Assembly: GCA_964431835.1 (NCBI GenBank) | Contig: CAYSKO010000010.1 | Coordinates: 267 to 64,266 of the forward strand | DNA: 64,000 nt | From: an uncultured Planctomycetia bacterium | GTDB taxonomy: Bacteria > Omnitrophota > Gorgyraeia > 2-02-FULL-51-18 | Reading direction: 5' to 3' | Shown here: piece after piece, positions 2,279 to 46,268 of the stretch | How positions within the stretch are numbered: position 1 is the stretch's first letter | Layout: every line of letters starts with the position of its first letter | Program-made: the position numbers and the translations under genes | The notes under the pieces: model-generated | What the model was told of the DNA's origin: nothing | Databases searched by the model: none | What the model saw: the letters and a program-made list of their open reading frames with translations, nothing else

Positions 2279-4281
2279 CGGGCTGCTCTTTCTTTACGCT
2301 CTCTCTGCGGTTTCTCTTTTTCCATCTTCGCCTGCAGAATTTTGATCTGGTCTCTTAATTTTATGGCCTTCTCGAACTGAAGGAGCCGCGCCGCGTCTTC
2401 CATTTCGCGCTCGAGCTGGGCAAGCGCCTCATGCTCGTCGGCGGTTCCCTCGGTGATGCCCGCGGCCTCGTTCACGACGTCGCGCGCCTTGCGGATAGAC
2501 TCGATCCCCTCGCGGATCTCCTTCTTGATCGTGGTCGGCGTGATGCCGTGCTTCTTGTTGTACTCGACCTGCATCTTCCGGCGTCGGTTGGTCTCGCTGA
2601 TGGTGTTCTTCATCGAATCGGTGACGTTGTCGGCGTAGAAGATGACGTACCCGTTCGAATGACGCGCGGCGCGGCCGGAGACCTGGATGAGCGACGTCTG
2701 GCTACGCAGGAATCCTTCCTTGTCCGCGTCGAGCACGATAACGAGCGAAACCTCCGGAAGGTCGATGCCCTCGCGCAGAAGGTTGATCCCGACGAGGCAG
2801 TCGAATTTCTTCAGGCGCAGGTCACGGAGGATTTCCACGCGCTGGATCGCGTCGATCTCGGAATGGATGTAGGTGACCTTCACGCCCGCGTTCTCGAGGA
2901 ACTTCGAGAGGTCCTCGGCCATGCGCTTGGTAAGCGTAGTCACGATGGTGCGCTCCCCGACCTCGGTGCGTTTCTGGATCTCGGCGAGAAGATCGTCGAT
3001 CTGTCCCTTGGTCGGGCGAATATCGATCGGAGGATCCGTGAGGCCGGTCGGGCGGATCACCTGCTCGACGATCTTGGTGGAGTTCCTGATTTCGTATTCG
3101 GCGGGCGTCGCCGAGACAAAGAGCGTTTGACCGGTCACGATCTCGAACTCCTCGAAACGCAAGGGGCGGTTGTCGAGCGCCGACGGCAGGCGGAAACCGA
3201 AATCCACGAGCGTCTCCTTGCGCGCGCGGTCTCCGAAGTACATGCCCTTGATCTGCGGGATCGAGATGTGGGACTCGTCGATGACGAGCAGGTAGTCTTT
3301 CGGGAAGTAGTCGATCAGGCAAAACGGCCGCGAACCGGCGGGACGGCCCGTGATGATGCGCGAATAGTTCTCGATGCCGGAGCAGAAACCGAGCTCCTTC
3401 ATCATTTCGATGTCGTAGCGGGTGCGCTGCTCGATCCGCTGGGCCTCGACGAGCTTGTCCTGGGAATTCAGCGCCTTGATCCGCGCGTCCAGTTCTTCCC
3501 CGATCTCGACGCAAGCCTTCTCGAGGCGCGGCGCGGTCGTGACGAAATGTTTGGCCGGATAGACGGCGATGGAGTCCAGTTCGTGGAGGACTTTGCCGGT
3601 CAGCGGATCGATGCGGGAGATTTTCTCGATCTCGTCCCAGGCCGATTCCACACGGATCGCGGTCTCTTCATAGGCAAGGAACACCTCGATCGTGTCGCCG
3701 CGCACGCGGAACGTGCCGCGTTTGAAATCGACGTCGTTTCGCGTGTACTGGATGTCCACGAGCGCCTTCAGAATCTTGTCGCGCGGCGTCTTGTCTTTGA
3801 GTTTCAGGAAAACGAGGAGTTCCGCGTACTCGGCCGGCGAACCCAAGCCATAGATCGCCGAAACGGAAGAGACCACGATCGTGTCGCGCCTGGAAAGGAG
3901 CGACGAGGTTGCGCGCAGGCGCAGGCGGTCGATGTCCTCGTTGATTGAGGAATCTTTCTCGATGTAGGTATCGGTCTGGGGAATGTACGCTTCGGGCTGG
4001 TAGTAATCGTAGTACGAGACGAAATACTCGACGGCGTTCTCGGGGAAAATTTCTTTGAACTCGCTATAGAGCTGCGCGGCTAGGGTCTTGTTGTGGGAGA
4101 GGACGAGTGTGGGCCGCTGGACCTTTTCGATCACGTTCGCCACCGTGAACGTCTTGCCGCTTCCCGTGACGCCGAGAAGCGTCTGGTAGCGCTCGCCCTT
4201 CAAGAGCCCTTGCGTGAGCTTCTCGATGGCTTGGGGCTGATCCCCCTTCGGGGTCATCTCGGAGATGATTTTGAAATTCAT
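2275..4281 (-). CDS. uvrB: Excinuclease ABC subunit B
   Basis: 668 aa. Walker A GVTGSGKT is present, with UvrB-characteristic blocks and a C-terminal UVR coiled-coil region. Confidence 0.95.
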
Positions 4282-39874: not shown

Positions 39875-40984
39875 TCACGCGCCCGCTTTAGCGGCTTCGG
39901 CGACCTTCACGTGAATCTGCTTTTCGATCTCGCCCAGGATCTTCGGGTTCTCGCGAAGATACGCTTTGGCGTTCTCCCGGCCCTGGCCGAGCTTGTCGTC
40001 CCCGTAGAGAATCCAGCTGCCGCTCTGCTTGGTGATGTTGTACGTCTCGGCCATGTCGAGGATCGAACCCACTGCCGAAACGCCTTCGTCGTACATGAGA
40101 TCGAACTCCGCCTGTTTGAACGGCGCGGCGACCTTATTCTTCACGACCTTCACGCGCACGCGGCCACCGACGGTTTCCTCGCCGCGCTTGATCTGCGCGA
40201 TGCGCCGGATGTCGAGACGGACCGACGAATAGAACTTGAGCGCGCGGCCGCCCGGCGTGGTTTCGGGGTTGCCGAACATCACGCCGATCTTCTCGCGGAG
40301 CTGATTGATGAAAATGATGCAGGACTTCGATTTCGAGATCGTGCCCGTGAGCTTGCGGAGCGCCTGACTCATGAGACGCGCCTGGAGACCGACGTGGGAA
40401 TCGCCCATCTCGCCTTCGATTTCGGCCTTCGGCGTCAGCGCCGCGACGGAGTCGACGACGACGAGATCGACCGCGTTCGAACGCACGAGCATCTCGGCGA
40501 TTTCGAGCGCCTGCTCCCCGGTGTCGGGCTGGGACACGAGAAGATCGTCAAGATTCACGCCGAGCTTCTTGGCGTAGGTGGAATCGAACGCGTGCTCCGC
40601 GTCGATGAAGGCGGCCGTGCCCTTCTTCTTCTGCGCCTGCGCGATGATGCTCAAGGTAAGGGTGGTTTTACCGCTGGATTCCGGCCCGTAGATCTCGATG
40701 ATTCGGCCGCGCGGGATGCCGCCGATGCCGAGCGCGAGATCGAGTGCGATCGCTCCCGTCGGAATGGCGGGAACGTCGCTCTTGGTATTCTGGCCGAGAG
40801 TCATGATCGACCCTTTGCCGAAAAGTTTCTCTATCTGCAAAACGGTCGCGTCGAGCGATTTCCGGCGGTCGGCCATTCCGTCCTTCGTGGCGTCTTTCGA
40901 GTTGTCGCGCGCGTGGCTCACCTGACGCGCGTCCATCTTCTGCTGCTCTTTTTCTTCTTTTTTCATTGCGAAGCTCTTGGCCAT
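39875..40984 (-). CDS. recA: Recombinase RecA
   Basis: 369 aa with [10 protein letters not shown] Walker A and the canonical RecA core. Confidence 0.95.
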
Positions 40985-41034
40985 CGCTTCCTCCGATTAT
41001 AAAACACAATCTTGCCTGGACTTGGCACCGCGCG

Positions 41035-41235: not shown

Positions 41236-42471
41236 ATGAGAGCGGAAATCGTATCCATCGGAACGGAGCTTCTCGTCGGCTCGACCATCAACACCAACGC
41301 GGCTTACCTTTCGGCGCGCCTGGCGGATCTGGGCATCGACGTCTACCGGCACACGGTCGTCGGAGACAACGTCGATCGGATCGTTTTGGCGTTCGAAGAG
41401 GCGGCAATGCGCTCCGAACTCGTCTTGTGCACGGGCGGTCTCGGTCCTACGGAAGACGACGTGACGGCCGAGGCCGCCGCGCGTTTCGTCCGCGAACCGC
41501 TCGTGATGCACCGTGCGAGCGAGCGCCACATCGAGCGCGCGCTGAAAGCACGCGGACTGCGGATGACGAAACTGATTCGCCGCCAATGCTTCGTTCCGCG
41601 CGGCGCCGTCGTTCTGCGCAACCTTCGGGGCACGGCGGCCGGTTGGCTCGTGCGCACGCCAGGCGGTTCCCGCCTCATGGCTCTCCCCGGCCCCCCGCGC
41701 GAGCTCAAGTCAATGATGGACGACGCCGCGATTCCGGCGCTCACGAAACACATGCATCTGGCGCCGGCGTGCCTCGTGCGCCGCAGCGTGCGCCTCGCAG
41801 GCCTCATCGAAGTTCAGGTCGCTGCGAAAGTACACGATCTCCTCAAGCTTCGGCCTCCGGTCACCGTCGGCATTTACGCCAAGGCCGGCGAAGTGGAGCT
41901 CAAGATCATGGCGAAAGCTTCTTCCGAAAAAAAAGCCTCCGAGGCCGCCGACCGCATCGAACGCACGATCCGCCGACGTTTCGGAGACCGCGTTTACGGA
42001 ACGGATTCGGACACGATCGGGGCGGCGGCGGGAAAACGCCTGGCAGGGTTGGGGAAAACACTCGCTGTGGCTGAATCCTGTACCGGAGGCGCGTTAGCCA
42101 ACCTCTTTACGGACGTTCCCGGCAGCTCGGAGTGGTTTAAGGGCGGGATCGTCTCCTACGTCGCGGGAACGAAGGAGGCGCTTTTGGGGGTGCAGCTTGG
42201 AAAACGCGATCCCGTGAGCGGTGCGGTCGCGGTGGAACTTGCTCGGGCCGCACGGGAACGTTTCCAGTCGGATTTCGGGATCGGGGTCACTGGGAATGCG
42301 GGGCCGGGAAAAGACAAGGGCTCCCGGGAGCCGGTGGGAATTGTCTTCATCGCCGTCGCGGACGCGCGCGGCGTGCGGACGAAAAAAAGCCGTTTCGCCG
42401 GCACCCGCGCCGAAATCAAGGCGCGAGCCGCCCGCGAAGCGGCGAATTTAATCCGTACGCAAGCGCGCTAA
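41236..42471 (+). CDS. cinA: Competence/damage-inducible protein CinA (MocF-like domain plus CinA C-terminal deamidase domain)
   Basis: 411 aa starting MRAEIVSIGTELLVGSTINTNAAYL..., a full-length CinA. It is the only plus-strand gene and is divergent from recA. There is no SD-like sequence and a TATACT hexamer sits 6 nt upstream of the ATG. Confidence 0.85.
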   Translation: MRAEIVSIGTELLVGSTINTNAAYLSARLADLGIDVYRHTVVGDNVDRIVLAFEEAAMRSELVLCTGGLGPTEDDVTAEAAARFVREPLVMHRASERHIERALKARGLRMTKLIRRQCFVPRGAVVLRNLRGTAAGWLVRTPGGSRLMALPGPPRELKSMMDDAAIPALTKHMHLAPACLVRRSVRLAGLIEVQVAAKVHDLLKLRPPVTVGIYAKAGEVELKIMAKASSEKKASEAADRIERTIRRRFGDRVYGTDSDTIGAAAGKRLAGLGKTLAVAESCTGGALANLFTDVPGSSEWFKGGIVSYVAGTKEALLGVQLGKRDPVSGAVAVELARAARERFQSDFGIGVTGNAGPGKDKGSREPVGIVFIAVADARGVRTKKSRFAGTRAEIKARAAREAANLIRTQAR

Positions 42472-42500
42472 GACGGCCGCGCTTCGGCTTTCCTCCCCTT

Positions 42501-43364
42501 TTAGCGCTGAGATTCTTCCTGCACCAAAACCGCTTCGGCCCGGAGCGTCCGTGGTTCGTACTGCGCTTTGACGAGGGCGCCTTCCTCCAAATCGTCGACG
42601 ATGGCCGGCGATACGGCTAGCGTGACGTTTTTGCCTGAAAATTGGTCGCTCACGGTGATCTCTGCGCGCGGACGATCGACGTCCACGAGCCGCCCAACCG
42701 CGGTGTCGAGCACGGTTTCGGGCGTCGAGGGGCGTGTCACGCCGGCGGTCAGAATCTGGTTTTCGGTGCTCACGAGAGGCGCCGCCACGCCCACGCTCCC
42801 GACCGGAACCACGGTGGCCGCCGACGGAGAACCGGGACCGCCCGGCGCGGATGGGAACGAGCGAGTGCCGTTGGCGTCGAGCCCCGGAGGCTCGCCGAGG
42901 AATTCGGTCCGTCCGGGCTGGACGGATGCGGCGCCGCCACCGCCATTCCCGACGGGTAGCTCGGTCACGAAACGATTCGCCTGATCGTTCGAGTCTGCCG
43001 TCCTCACCGCCTGGGTCTGAGCGCCGACGTTCGCTGCCGAGCGGTCGTTGACGTTGACGAACGGCCCGCCGCCGTCGCGGAAGCCCTGAAAACCCGCCGT
43101 ACTGCGCGAGCCGCCGTCGAAAGCAGAGTTCGAAATCGAAGGAGGAACGTCGAGGGCCGACGTCGCGGGGAGACCGGTACCGGAGCTTTGAAATCCCGTC
43201 GATACGGCGGTGCTCGTTCCGCCCGCCGCGGCGGCCTGCTGCGCCGCTGGGGGAGCCGTGGCTCCCGGATCGCTCTGCGAATTTTCGGCGAAAGCGGATA
43301 AAGAAAAAACCGCCCCGAAGGCGGCAACTAAGATCGAAAGTGCGGAAACGCGGAACGTTTTCAT
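42501..43364 (-). CDS. Secreted low-complexity (G/A/S/P-rich) protein with conserved C-terminal small beta-domain (secP1)
   Basis: 287 aa. Signal peptide MKTFRVSALSILVAAFGAVFSLSAFA; GGAGGAAG RBS. The C-terminal approx. 60 aa (RAEITVSDQFSGKNVTLAVSPAIVDDLEEGALVKAQYE) is shared with the two upstream secreted proteins. Confidence 0.6.
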   Translation of the reverse strand: MKTFRVSALSILVAAFGAVFSLSAFAENSQSDPGATAPPAAQQAAAAGGTSTAVSTGFQSSGTGLPATSALDVPPSISNSAFDGGSRSTAGFQGFRDGGGPFVNVNDRSAANVGAQTQAVRTADSNDQANRFVTELPVGNGGGGAASVQPGRTEFLGEPPGLDANGTRSFPSAPGGPGSPSAATVVPVGSVGVAAPLVSTENQILTAGVTRPSTPETVLDTAVGRLVDVDRPRAEITVSDQFSGKNVTLAVSPAIVDDLEEGALVKAQYEPRTLRAEAVLVQEESQR

Positions 43365-43442
43365 GGTCTTCCTCCGTGGGGCTTTCGCGGCTCGCGTCGC
43401 CCCTTGAGTAGCAACTCCCGGAATTCGGGAGCGATAGTGAGA

Positions 43443-43850
43443 CTAGACACCCGCACCGTCTTCGGCGCCCCGGGCGAGCAGTCCTTCGTCGACAGGCAGG
43501 CCCACTTCGACGCTTTCCGCTTCCTCCGGATTCAGCTGAACCGTCCGGTTTTCTCCCGTTTCCCCGTCTTTCACAACGACTTCGCCGGTCTCCTCGTCTT
43601 TGGCCACGACGTTCCACCGCGTTTCTTCGTCGCCCAAAGCGCCTGCGGGCTGCGAAAAGGCGTCGGTTTGCGGACCCAACGCCGGATCCGCCGACGATTC
43701 GGCCGGTTCAAAGGCCGCTTCGTCGGCGGAAAGGGGTGCCAAGGCTTCCCCCGATTCACCGTCGGATCCAAACCCGTCCCCCAACTCGGCCCAAGCGGAG
43801 GGCGCGAAGAGGAGCGAGAGAACCGTGGCGATCGGAAGGAAGCGGGTCAT
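43443..43850 (-). CDS. Small secreted acidic protein with the same C-terminal beta-domain (secP2)
   Basis: 135 aa. Signal peptide MTRFLPIATVLSLLFAPSAWA; the mature part is D/E/G-rich. C-terminus is WNVVAKDEETGEVVVKDGETGENRTVQLNPEEAESVEVG. The start lies 6 nt after the secP3 stop. Confidence 0.55.
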   Translation of the reverse strand: MTRFLPIATVLSLLFAPSAWAELGDGFGSDGESGEALAPLSADEAAFEPAESSADPALGPQTDAFSQPAGALGDEETRWNVVAKDEETGEVVVKDGETGENRTVQLNPEEAESVEVGLPVDEGLLARGAEDGAGV

Positions 43851-43856
43851 GTCGGC

Positions 43857-44663
43857 TTACTCGTTCGTGATACGGACGCCCTGAGCGCGCTTGCCGCTAC
43901 CCGAGGCGAGATCCACGCGAACGCTGTCGCCGATGGCGAGAGTCGAAGCGGACATCACGTTCGGATCGACCGTGATACGGCGGTCGCCCTTAGTGACGTC
44001 GTCCTTGATGGTGATCTCGTTGTCCATTTTGTCGATGGAGACGATCGTGCCTCGGATCATCTGCTCGGAAGCGGTCGACTCGTCGTTGACTCCCATCCCG
44101 GTGGTGGCGACGGCCGCATCGGCGGAAGTCACGTTGGTCGTGGGATCGCCGGTGGCGCTATCGGAGGCGGACATGCCAGCCGAAGCCGAAGCGTCCATGC
44201 CTGAAGCGTCGGTCGTGGCGGTGACGTCGGTCGAAGCGGTATTCATGTCGGCTGTGCCTTCCGTCGTGGCGACCACGGAGGTGTCCGCGTCGTTGGCGTC
44301 ACCCGAAACGTCCGCGTCCGCGGCGGTCCGGGACGTCAGCGGGCTCGAGCCTGCCGCGCTTTCAGCGGCGCTGTCGGCGGCGGGATCGTTAGAGGAAGCG
44401 TCCGCGTTGATCGCGTCGTTGGTCGCGTTCGCCGGATTGGCGCCTGCGGTCGTCGCGTCGGACGGATCGGCCGTCGTCGTGGTCGTCATGGCCGCGTCCG
44501 TCGTACCCACGTTCGCGCCTGAATTCGTGTTGGCGTCCGTCGCCTCAACGACGGTTCCTTCCGCTCCGGCTCCCGTGGCGACTACGTCGATCTCCGCGTA
44601 GGCGGCTGTCGAAAAGAACGCGACTGAGAAAAGTGCGAGGATAAAGCTCATGGATTTGTTCAT
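43857..44663 (-). CDS. Secreted T/A/D-rich low-complexity protein with C-terminal small beta-domain (secP3)
   Basis: True start is MNKSMSFILALFSVAFFSTAAYA (signal peptide) with an AGGAG RBS. The C-terminus is IRGTIVSIDKMDNEITIKDDVTKGDRRITVDPNVMSASTLAIGDSVRVDL. The longer track ORF (to 44711) lacks an RBS. Confidence 0.6.
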   Translation of the reverse strand: MNKSMSFILALFSVAFFSTAAYAEIDVVATGAGAEGTVVEATDANTNSGANVGTTDAAMTTTTTADPSDATTAGANPANATNDAINADASSNDPAADSAAESAAGSSPLTSRTAADADVSGDANDADTSVVATTEGTADMNTASTDVTATTDASGMDASASAGMSASDSATGDPTTNVTSADAAVATTGMGVNDESTASEQMIRGTIVSIDKMDNEITIKDDVTKGDRRITVDPNVMSASTLAIGDSVRVDLASGSGKRAQGVRITNE

Positions 44664-44703
44664 TTTGGTCTCCTGAATGGGTTGTTTAAGTGCCTTTGAA
44701 CTT

Positions 44704-44760
44704 GGACTCACTATAGCGCCGGGTGGATTAAAGGACCCTTAAAACAAGATTAAAATAACC
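44704..44760 (-). promoter_or_regulatory. Candidate OmpR-family response-regulator binding site (TTTAA x3 at 11-bp phasing) with a -10 TATAGT, upstream of secP3
   Basis: Minus strand: ...TTTAATC-N4-TTTTAAG-N4-CTTTAATC.... TTTAA starts are spaced exactly 11 bp apart (plus-strand ttaaa at 44728, 44739, 44750). The third repeat overlaps the -35 position of TATAGT (44710-44715). It lies in the 126-bp gap between the HK stop and the secP3 start. Confidence 0.45.
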
Positions 44761-44789
44761 TAATCCATTCGGACGCGTGAGTGATGCGC

Positions 44790-46268
44790 TCAGGGAGATG
44801 TGGCGGGGAGGAAAACGGTAAACGTCGTGCCGAGCCCGGTATGACTACGTACCTTGATGTCGCCCTGGTGGGCTTGAGCGATGGATTTGGCGATCGAAAG
44901 GCCGAGACCGAAACCTTCGCTCGAGCGCGCCTTGTCCACGCGGTAGAAGCGCTCGAAGATGTACGGCAGTTCGTTGTCGGGGATTCCGATTCCGGAATCG
45001 CTGACTTCCACGACGGCCAGATCGTTGTCGCGCGAGAGCGTGAGCGCCACTCGGCCCCGCTGAGGCGTGTACTTGATCGCGTTGTCGATTAAATTGATGA
45101 AAAGACGGCGGAGCTGGTTCTCGTGCCCGTTGATCACGGTCGTGCCGTTCTGCAGGTAGTTGATCTGGATTTGCTTTTGGTCCGCGAGGATCTTCATGTG
45201 CGCGGCGACCTTCTCCATGAGAAGATTCAAATCCACCGGCTGGGCAGCGCTCGCCATCTCCTTCGAGTCGTAACGCGCCAGAAGAAGAAGGTTGTCCAGG
45301 ATACGACGGATCTTATCGATCTCCTCAAGCGCACTGAAGAGAATCCCCTCGTACTCTTCGGGAGTCCGGCTCTTTTTGAGCGTGACTTCGAGCTCGCCTT
45401 TCAGGATCGTGAGCGGCGTTTTTAGCTCGTGCGAGATATCCTGGTTGAAGCGCTGCTGGGACGTAAACGCGCGCTCCAGACGTTCGAGCATTTCGTTGTA
45501 GGTCTCGGAAAGACGGCGGATCTCGTCGTTGGTAAGCGGGACTTTAAGGCGCATCTTGAGGTTATCCGCTTTGATCTCACGGATGGAGCGCACCATGTCG
45601 TCGACCGGCCGCAGCGTCATCTTGACCAGGAACGACCCCGCGAGACCCGTCAGAAGAGACGTGAGCGGCACGAGTAGGATCAGGATTGCTTTCAGATTGT
45701 TCAGCTCTTTCTGGATCGCCGTCAGCGAGCTCGCCACCTGAACAATGTATGCCACGCGCCGGCGTTCGATGACCGGGGAGGTCACCGCTCGCAGGGAAAG
45801 CTTGTCCCCCTCGGACGATAGCACGTCGAAGTTGTCGAACCGCGGCGTTCCCTTCAGGACGTACTCAAAAATGACCGGCCGCATCGTCGTCGAATCGGGA
45901 AGATCTTTCGACGAGGCGATCGGTTTCCCCTGCGCGTCGAACACGTGGACCACGAAATTGATGAGGTCGGGGTCGCTCGACTTGTCCTTGATCCAGCGGT
46001 CCACGAGATTCGCCAGCTCCGCGCCGCTCGCGCGACTGATGTTCGATTTCCCCTGCGTGCGGGTCACCTCGGAGTGATGCGCCTCGCGGTACGCCTCGAT
46101 GGACGTCACGATGCCGGCGGCTTTCAGCTTCAGCAGGTCGTCGATGTTCTTGTAGAGGCTGTGGCTGAAATTGCGGTACAGCAAGACGCTGAAGAGTGAC
46201 AGCGTCGCCGCCGACATCAGGATGTACAGGAGGATGATCTTGAAACGGATCGTACGGAAGAAGAACAA
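44790..46268 (-). CDS. Sensor histidine kinase (two TM helices, periplasmic sensor, HAMP, HisKA, HATPase_c; EnvZ/CpxA-like)
   Basis: 492 aa with H-box ISHELKTPLT and N/G1/F/G2 boxes (...NLIDNAIKYT...DSGIGIP...GFGLGLSI). Confidence 0.9.
   Translation of the reverse strand: MFFFRTIRFKIILLYILMSAATLSLFSVLLYRNFSHSLYKNIDDLLKLKAAGIVTSIEAYREAHHSEVTRTQGKSNISRASGAELANLVDRWIKDKSSDPDLINFVVHVFDAQGKPIASSKDLPDSTTMRPVIFEYVLKGTPRFDNFDVLSSEGDKLSLRAVTSPVIERRRVAYIVQVASSLTAIQKELNNLKAILILLVPLTSLLTGLAGSFLVKMTLRPVDDMVRSIREIKADNLKMRLKVPLTNDEIRRLSETYNEMLERLERAFTSQQRFNQDISHELKTPLTILKGELEVTLKKSRTPEEYEGILFSALEEIDKIRRILDNLLLLARYDSKEMASAAQPVDLNLLMEKVAAHMKILADQKQIQINYLQNGTTVINGHENQLRRLFINLIDNAIKYTPQRGRVALTLSRDNDLAVVEVSDSGIGIPDNELPYIFERFYRVDKARSSEGFGLGLSIAKSIAQAHQGDIKVRSHTGLGTTFTVFLPATSP

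Follow-up and report, generated by a model that had tools for sequence, protein, structure and literature searches.

An array of phased half-sites just past a sensor kinase gene, a predicted operator of the adjacent OmpR-family regulator, is conserved across ten orthologous loci

The locus described here belongs to a window of 64,000 nucleotides, the whole stretch of DNA that was analysed, in which a two-component system and three genes for secreted proteins follow one another on the minus strand (Table 1). The domain content of both partners agrees with an earlier note on this DNA, which had placed an OmpR-family regulator next to the repeats; in the regulator, D51 is the predicted phospho-acceptor and TNVIDVYINYLR the recognition helix. 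Between the stop of the histidine kinase gene (44790) and the ATG of secP3 (44663) there are 126 bp, the same length as given before, and a Shine-Dalgarno sequence, AGGAG, precedes secP3 at 44670-44674. Only secP3 lies directly behind the site described below. The gene secP2 starts 6 nt past the stop of secP3 and is probably co-transcribed with it, whereas secP1 comes 78 nt after secP2, in a gap where no operator or promoter match was detected; on the basis of these two gaps, of 6 and 78 nt, a single secP3-secP2-secP1 operon seems likely. Counts of D+E versus K+R were 39/12 in secP3 and 29/6 in secP2, and neither His nor Cys is present in secP1, secP2, or secP3.

Table 1. Genes and predicted regulatory elements of the locus, with positions in the window; distances to the transcription start apply if +1 is near 44703.
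Feature	Position	Strand	Description
OmpR/PhoB-family response regulator, 224 aa	46278..46952	-	Pfam Response_reg 4.6e-29, Trans_reg_C 2.9e-28
Sensor histidine kinase, 492 aa	44790..46268	-	Pfam HAMP, HisKA, HATPase_c; periplasmic sensor domain
Inverted half-site ATTAGG	44759..44764	-	Block gaTtAga, same register in 10 loci
Direct repeat 1, TTTTAAT	44749..44755	-	About -52 to -46; TTYTAAT in 10/10 loci
Direct repeat 2, TTTTAAG	44738..44744	-	About -41 to -35; TTYTAA in 9/10 loci
Direct repeat 3, CTTTAAT	44727..44733	-	About -30 to -24; 11 bp upstream of the -10
Predicted -10 hexamer, TATAGT	44710..44715	-	TAnnnT equally spaced from repeat 3 in 10/10 loci
secP3	43857..44663	-	ORF; signal peptide, about 170 aa of acidic T/A/D/S-rich low complexity, C-terminal beta-barrel of about 65 aa
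secP2	43443..43850	-	Secreted acidic protein, degenerate copy of the secP3 C-terminal domain
secP1	42501..43364	-	Secreted low-complexity protein with a secP3-type C-terminal domain

Inside the 126-bp gap, the minus strand from 44756 to 44725 reads ATTTTAATCTTGTTTTAAGGGTCCTTTAATCC, identical to the sequence quoted in the earlier note, and the three TTTAA copies that it had described, beginning at 44754, 44743, and 44732, are indeed present (44754-44750, 44743-44739, and 44732-44728) with a step of exactly 11 bp. That TTTAA is repeated thus holds, but the pentamer is not the whole unit: the conserved repeat is the 7-mer TTYTAAT, each copy being followed by a variable spacer of 4 bp, and a fourth half-site in inverted orientation had been missed. 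This fourth block, gATTAGa, is located upstream of repeat 1, in the same 11-bp phase, and corresponds to the reverse complement of the half-site (TCTAAT). Together with repeat 1, it forms a 16-bp inverted repeat of 6-4-6 layout (ATTAGG-TTAT-TTTAAT, 44764-44749). The full element consequently has an inverted ATTAGR and, 4 bp further on, three direct TTYTAAT copies, which makes four half-sites that keep an 11-bp phase.

The search for further TTTAA-N6-TTTAA-N6-TTTAA sites that had been suggested returned this single occurrence on both strands of the 64-kb window, compared with 0.00 expected from 100 dinucleotide shuffles, and even the two-copy version, TTTAA-N6-TTTAA, was found within the window at this site only. 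As a stricter null, we used a Markov model for which this AT-rich intergenic region provided the training sequence; under it, the TTTAA triple had a probability of 5e-6 per 126-mer, and any pentamer tripled at 10-12 bp a probability of 9e-4. Multiplied by the approximately 60 intergenic regions of the window (an estimate, not a count), the latter value amounts to about 0.05, which would leave some room for a common, AT-rich pentamer to be so arranged by chance, and because so many regions have to be allowed for, the array in this window alone is suggestive at most. It is its conservation in other genomes that settles its reality: in ten of ten loci, including three that were kept apart from the construction of the search matrix, the array was found in the same register with respect to both the -10 and the kinase stop, so that chance is almost certainly not the explanation.

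These ten loci, a sample of orthologous kinase loci made up of the window and nine further distinct ones, include metagenome-assembled genomes (MAGs) of Eisenbacteria, Omnitrophica, and Nitrospirae, and in all of them the array is located just past the kinase stop (kinase identities of 47-100%). The closest relative, L001, comes from a Candidatus Eisenbacteria MAG (kinase 77% identical) and was the sole useful locus from a scan of genome contigs, the other six matches being distant kinases; a scan of metagenome contigs with the kinase alignment gave no orthologous loci, only paralogues of 25-31% identity. Loci L013 and L014 (68% and 67%) are syntenic with the window in the order rimO-pgsA-pgpA-regulator-kinase-small protein, with cinA and recA also downstream in L013. 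More distant are L015 (with an identical copy, L016), L017 (an Omnitrophica MAG), and L018, with kinases of 52-54% identity, and L019, L020 (a Nitrospirae MAG), and L021 (an Omnitrophica MAG), with 48-50%. Among these six more distant loci, L015 to L021, the genes flanking the regulator-kinase pair vary, from which it follows that the pair and the array travel as one module. The regulator gene adjoins the kinase gene in all nine loci in which that region was covered.

A position weight matrix of the half-site was built from the first seven loci (21 half-sites), leaving the other three as held-out cases. In each of the three (3/3), the top match of the matrix over the whole 8-9.5 kb, both strands included, was directly after the kinase gene. 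When the matrix was run on the window, the array scored 38.4 bits, followed at 13.3 bits by the array itself offset by one repeat, and the best unrelated match reached 12.7 bits. With this matrix, no second operator site was found in the window, including the regions upstream of the regulator gene, secP2, and secP1, and none appeared upstream of the regulator genes in the loci scanned. The anchored alignment of the ten loci, with the consensus gaTtAga.t.TT.TAAT.Tt.TTcTAA...t..TTTAAT......t....TAta.t, carries information in the operator and -10 columns only, the flanks being unconserved. Repeat 2 departs from its pattern in L017 (CTCTAA) and is variable at its seventh base, and repeat 3 keeps TTTAAT in 8/10 loci, the exceptions being L021 (CTAAT) and L019 (TTAAT).

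This pattern also bears on whether the block works through its composition instead of its letters, as phased T-tracts that are intrinsically curved, in the manner of an UP element, and stimulate a constitutive promoter without any specific regulator. Such tracts, placed once per helical turn, can bend DNA, and nowhere in the locus is the AT content higher than in the array region (44-46% GC versus 61% for the window). However, conservation is base-specific and not compositional: the 21 half-sites of the matrix all share T2, T4, A5, and A6 of the 7-mer, the family consensus being T(T/C)TAA(T/C/G), and the C tolerated at position 3 would break a T-tract. Moreover, an inverted copy of the half-site is kept at a fixed register, and the tracts cover the -35 and the spacer, whereas UP elements act upstream of -40. 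We consequently regard a curvature effect as quite improbable.

The position of the array within the promoter differs in part from what had been proposed. The earlier note had put the last repeat at the -35 of a TATAGT promoter; the array does straddle the -35 position, but repeat 3 itself falls at about -30 to -24 and the -35 between repeats 2 and 3. The distance from repeat 3 to the TAnnnT motif is 11 bp in the ten loci, with the exception of L018, where it is 10 bp; the PHO box ends about 10 bp from the -10. At a spacing of 17 bp, the -35 would be GGGTCC (44738-44733), which coincides with the four spacer bases that separate repeats 2 and 3, together with one base from each of the two. The whole operator would span about -61 to -24, and its arrangement resembles that of a PHO box, an array predicted to straddle the -35 position and not one in which repeat 3 replaces it. 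The promoter scan returned no sigma-70 promoter whose -35 would be usable, and the -35 columns are unconserved in the ten-locus alignment; as no -35/-10 promoter of the sigma-70 type is detectable, dependence on an activator fits well. On the other hand, the operator begins only 25 nt after the kinase stop with no terminator in between, so part of the transcription of secP3 may be read-through that is independent of the site.

The same closeness raises the question of a role in RNA, with the block acting on the read-through transcript of the kinase as a terminator, an attenuator, or a processing site, and it is true that it lies directly after the kinase stop, that no other terminator is present, and that the intergenic RNA (132 nt) has a slightly more stable fold than shuffled sequences (z = -1.9, with 10/200 shuffles as good). 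Nevertheless, the Rfam scan of 44400-45000 was empty at E <= 1, and RNAalifold on the ten loci returned the 6-4-6 palindrome alone (columns 21-27 with 32-38, seven AU/GU pairs, -1.4 kcal/mol) with zero compensatory pairs. Furthermore, no T-run follows the block, and both the 11-bp period and the fixed distance to the -10 are features of a DNA site. The bare palindrome, the lack of compensatory changes, the empty Rfam scan, and a fold only marginally better than shuffles thus indicate that the element is a DNA site and not an RNA one, and we consider the latter very improbable indeed.

Several operators of the OmpR family share parts of this architecture. The PHO box consists of 11-nt units (7 conserved plus 4) around the -35 (PMC4415409, PMC8601176), with NTKTMAY as its degenerate unit (PMC8601176). 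As in the PHO boxes of PhoB from E. coli and PhoP from Bacillus and Streptomyces, the direct 7+4 repeats of the window are on the coding strand around the -35, in a promoter with a -10 but no -35; TTTTAAT fits NTKTMAY, and an 18-bp unit of 7+4+7 (TTTTAAG-GGTC-CTTTAAT, 44744-44727) ends 11 bp from the -10. Against this likeness, the G and the C of the PHO unit CTGTCAT are absent from the half-site of the window, which adds an inverted fourth half-site. Membership of the Pho regulon itself is contradicted by the score of the regulator against the PhoB equivalog (213.4 bits, cut-off 296.2) and by the targets, which are small secreted proteins and not pst or pho genes; in addition, and differently from the Pho system, the kinase here has a large periplasmic sensor domain.

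The second group is that of the heavy-metal regulators, represented by the AgrR box and by the cop box of CopR and PcoR (C. metallidurans, P. syringae, and plasmid pRJ1004), the subfamily to which the regulator and the kinase of the window are nearest. The AgrR box is an inverted repeat of 6-4-6 type, ATKACA-N4-TGTMAT, with optional in-phase direct repeats, and constitutes a Type II activator site in promoters whose -10 is good but whose -35 is poor (PMC7380067). The 16-bp 6-4-6 inverted repeat was found here too, but not the TGTMAT/ATKACA half-site: the half-site of the window is TYTAAT, with no G at position 2 and always A at position 4 in the 21 half-sites, and three direct repeats are present in place of the single optional extra one of the AgrR box. 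AgrR is also positively autoregulated (PMC7380067), a feature not seen here, as the regions upstream of the regulator genes yielded no operator. For the CusR box, the literature offered only a generic mention of a consensus.

The half-site itself is almost identical to that of a third group, CiaR of streptococci and HP1043/HsrA of Helicobacter pylori, which bind TTTAAG-N5-TTTAAG with 11-bp spacing, as experimentally verified (PMC9603419, PMC5253667). In the window, repeat 2 is TTTAAG and the others TTTAAT, giving the N5-spaced series TTTAAT-N5-TTTAAG-N5-TTTAAT on the coding strand, as in those boxes, whose binders also belong to the OmpR family. The CiaR and HP1043 boxes have two repeats, in contrast to the three direct and one inverted of the window; neither protein was among the best 25 NCBIfam matches listed for the regulator, and HP1043 is an orphan regulator independent of phosphorylation, whereas the regulator of the window has a cognate kinase. 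Taken together, these comparisons suggest that the predicted operator joins the 6-4-6 palindrome of a cop box with a direct-repeat array of the PHO type.

With respect to the proteins, the best NCBIfam match of the regulator was the heavy-metal response regulator family TIGR01387 (269 bits versus a cut-off of 279.2), ahead of CusR, HprR, RppA, and PhoB, and the kinase scored 290.6 bits against TIGR01386 (cut-off 292.55). Judged by these scores, both are borderline and not certified members of the heavy-metal subfamily, and because they fall just under the cut-offs, the binding mode of AgrR and CopR transfers to them by analogy only. The recognition helix TNVIDVYINYLR is invariant in nine loci, although the regulators are 70-83% identical overall, an invariance that parallels the conservation of the half-site. 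It differs at three positions from TNAIDVAVKRLR, which we take to be the helix of E. coli CusR, a comparison that serves as a lead only.

The kinase family is large: at E <= 1e-60, the search gave 937 homologues, many of which carry the automatic name "heavy metal sensor kinase". We aligned the sensor domain (residues 31-195 of the kinase) in 34 sequences, from 120 homologues among the matches listed; this alignment was applied to the sensor domain only, and not to the operator. It contains 42 columns with at least 90% identity, and no conserved His, Met, or Cys was found among them. A search of the PDB with the sequence of the sensor domain returned no relative. The "heavy metal" label thus appears to be without support from ligand residues, and the annotation of the family as metal-sensing looks doubtful.

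Since the array is strictly linked to the regulator-kinase pair even where the neighbouring genes are unrelated, the protein that binds it is more likely to be the cognate regulator than another factor favouring AT-rich phased sites. The sense of the control deserves a separate consideration, as OmpR-family regulators can repress or activate depending on the position of their site (PMC7380067), and an array at about -61 to -24 covers the region contacted by RNA polymerase, so that the site could equally well be bound but negative, induction then being derepression. Nonetheless, a -35 is neither present nor conserved, the promoter without its activator would be weak and in no need of a repressor, and the last repeat lies 10-11 bp from the -10, the geometry of activating sites of the PHO type. 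Negative control, or binding by an unrelated factor, is in our opinion unlikely. We consider it probable, instead, that the element serves as the operator in a promoter of secP3 that depends on an activator, namely the adjacent OmpR-family regulator, and a class II activator site is its most likely nature. The proposal that this was a candidate operator of that regulator consequently gains support from the linkage in ten of ten loci, the fixed distance to the -10, the invariant helix, and the geometry shared with known sites.

From these features of the DNA and of the predicted proteins we infer the binding of the regulator, its activating and not repressing effect, a transcription start near 44703, and the following distribution of protomers on the half-sites. 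The kinase would phosphorylate the regulator at D51, after which regulator dimers would occupy the array. The proximal pair, formed by repeats 2 and 3 in the 18-bp 7+4+7 unit, would compensate for the lack of a -35 and bring in RNA polymerase, in a class II activation like that of PhoB at the PHO box. The distal pair, that is, the inverted half-site and repeat 1 in a 6-4-6 palindrome like those of AgrR and CopR, would add affinity or cooperativity. One transcript covering secP3, secP2, and secP1 would probably be driven from this promoter.

Regarding the genes that such a promoter would control in other genomes, in nine of the ten loci the gene called next after the array codes for a small protein whose N-terminus, as judged by eye, is a hydrophobic leader resembling a signal peptide. 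In L015 (5584-5819, corresponding to 3685-3920 in L016), the operator and the -10 are followed by 235 bp without a called gene and then by a HAD-hydrolase gene; a small ORF was overlooked there, or else the regulated gene is a different one in that lineage. A domain of approximately 55-65 aa, with the pattern G-x-I-V-S-I-D-x4-E-I-T-V-K-D...R-x-I-x-V...L-x-V-G-D-x-V, is shared by six loci (the window, L001, L013, L014, L017, and L018); in the window, each of secP1, secP2, and secP3 has it at the C-terminus, preceded by a signal peptide and a long acidic segment rich in T, A, D, and S. Pfam gave only sub-threshold matches for it, to CusF_Ec (E 8.6e-4) and to DUF5666; a homologue search with the C-terminal domain of secP3 found nothing, and a profile search of the PDB with the small-protein domain gave insignificant matches only. 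An AlphaFold model of the secP3 domain (pLDDT 79), built from an alignment of the three paralogues of the window, had CusF (1zeq) as its best match among solved structures (E 1.5e-3, TM 0.70), with SilF also present, among generic OB folds; as the model rests on these three paralogues only, the match is suggestive and not firm.

This fold is reminiscent of cusF, which belongs to the cusCFBA operon controlled by CusR (PMC10920338), and it is the first product downstream of the operator that carries it. However, the positions of the metal ligands of CusF are not kept in secP3, which has no His at all. As regards the two-component system, differences from the heavy-metal systems are found in the sensor domain, devoid of conserved His, Met, or Cys, and in the region upstream of the regulator gene, where no site is present. 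A broader reading, which we put forward as a possibility that at present looks rather doubtful, is that this kinase-regulator family, with homologues in Omnitrophica, Nitrospirae, Eisenbacteria, and others, would form an envelope-signalling module of its own, without metal sensing. The promoter just downstream of the kinase gene would then be the sole output that is both conserved and hard-wired, driving small periplasmic or secreted proteins of CusF fold whose metal ligands have been lost, by means of a hybrid operator of cop-box and PHO type.

Control elements of this kind are well known, and the proposed mechanism will not surprise those who work on the OmpR family; it is the two-component family that is unstudied, albeit widespread. 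What the analysis provides is a concrete, if predicted, assignment of regulator, operator, and target for a two-component system common in uncultivated phyla, along with a 40-bp consensus that can be used for regulon mapping in complete genomes. It also suggests how a single site may unite the architectures of the cop box and the PHO box, and it advises caution with the automatic label of "heavy metal sensor", given the absence of conserved soft-metal ligands in the sensor domain and of the binding residues of CusF in the CusF-like outputs.

Some additional features were noticed along the locus. The gap between secP2 and secP1 holds a near-perfect palindrome on the minus strand, TCCCGAATTCCGGGA (43416-43430), without a T-run after it. 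A hairpin followed by a T-run, GCCGCCTTCGGGGCGGTTTTTT (43309-43325, minus strand), resembles a terminator and lies within codons of the secP1 signal peptide (AAFGAVF); it was dismissed as a terminator for being inside the coding sequence, where it is probably a coincidence of the codons, although it could attenuate transcription into secP1. Two long ORFs, at 39911-41002 on the plus strand (363 aa) and at 42448-43617 on the minus strand (389 aa), run through recA and secP1 in antisense orientation or in another frame, and were discarded as genes, their Arg-rich, low-complexity translations being artefacts of the high GC content.

In other loci, a second family of small proteins with signal peptides, characterised by the motif G-K-V-E-S-I-x-L-A-D-P-x-K-G-T-K-S-E-I-V-V, was found downstream of the operator in L017 (3240-3446), L018 (3198-3533), L020 (4210-4572), and L021 (5567-5926); in L020, a protein annotated as DUF5666 comes after it. 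Finally, L018 contains a second site similar to the operator, with two repeats, TTTTAATGTTGCTTTAACG (3602-3620, 20.1 bits), located just past a hairpin with a T-run; a TTATAT box follows after about 12 bp, and then, at 3647, the start of an alpha/beta-hydrolase gene, which may be an additional member of the regulon in that genome.
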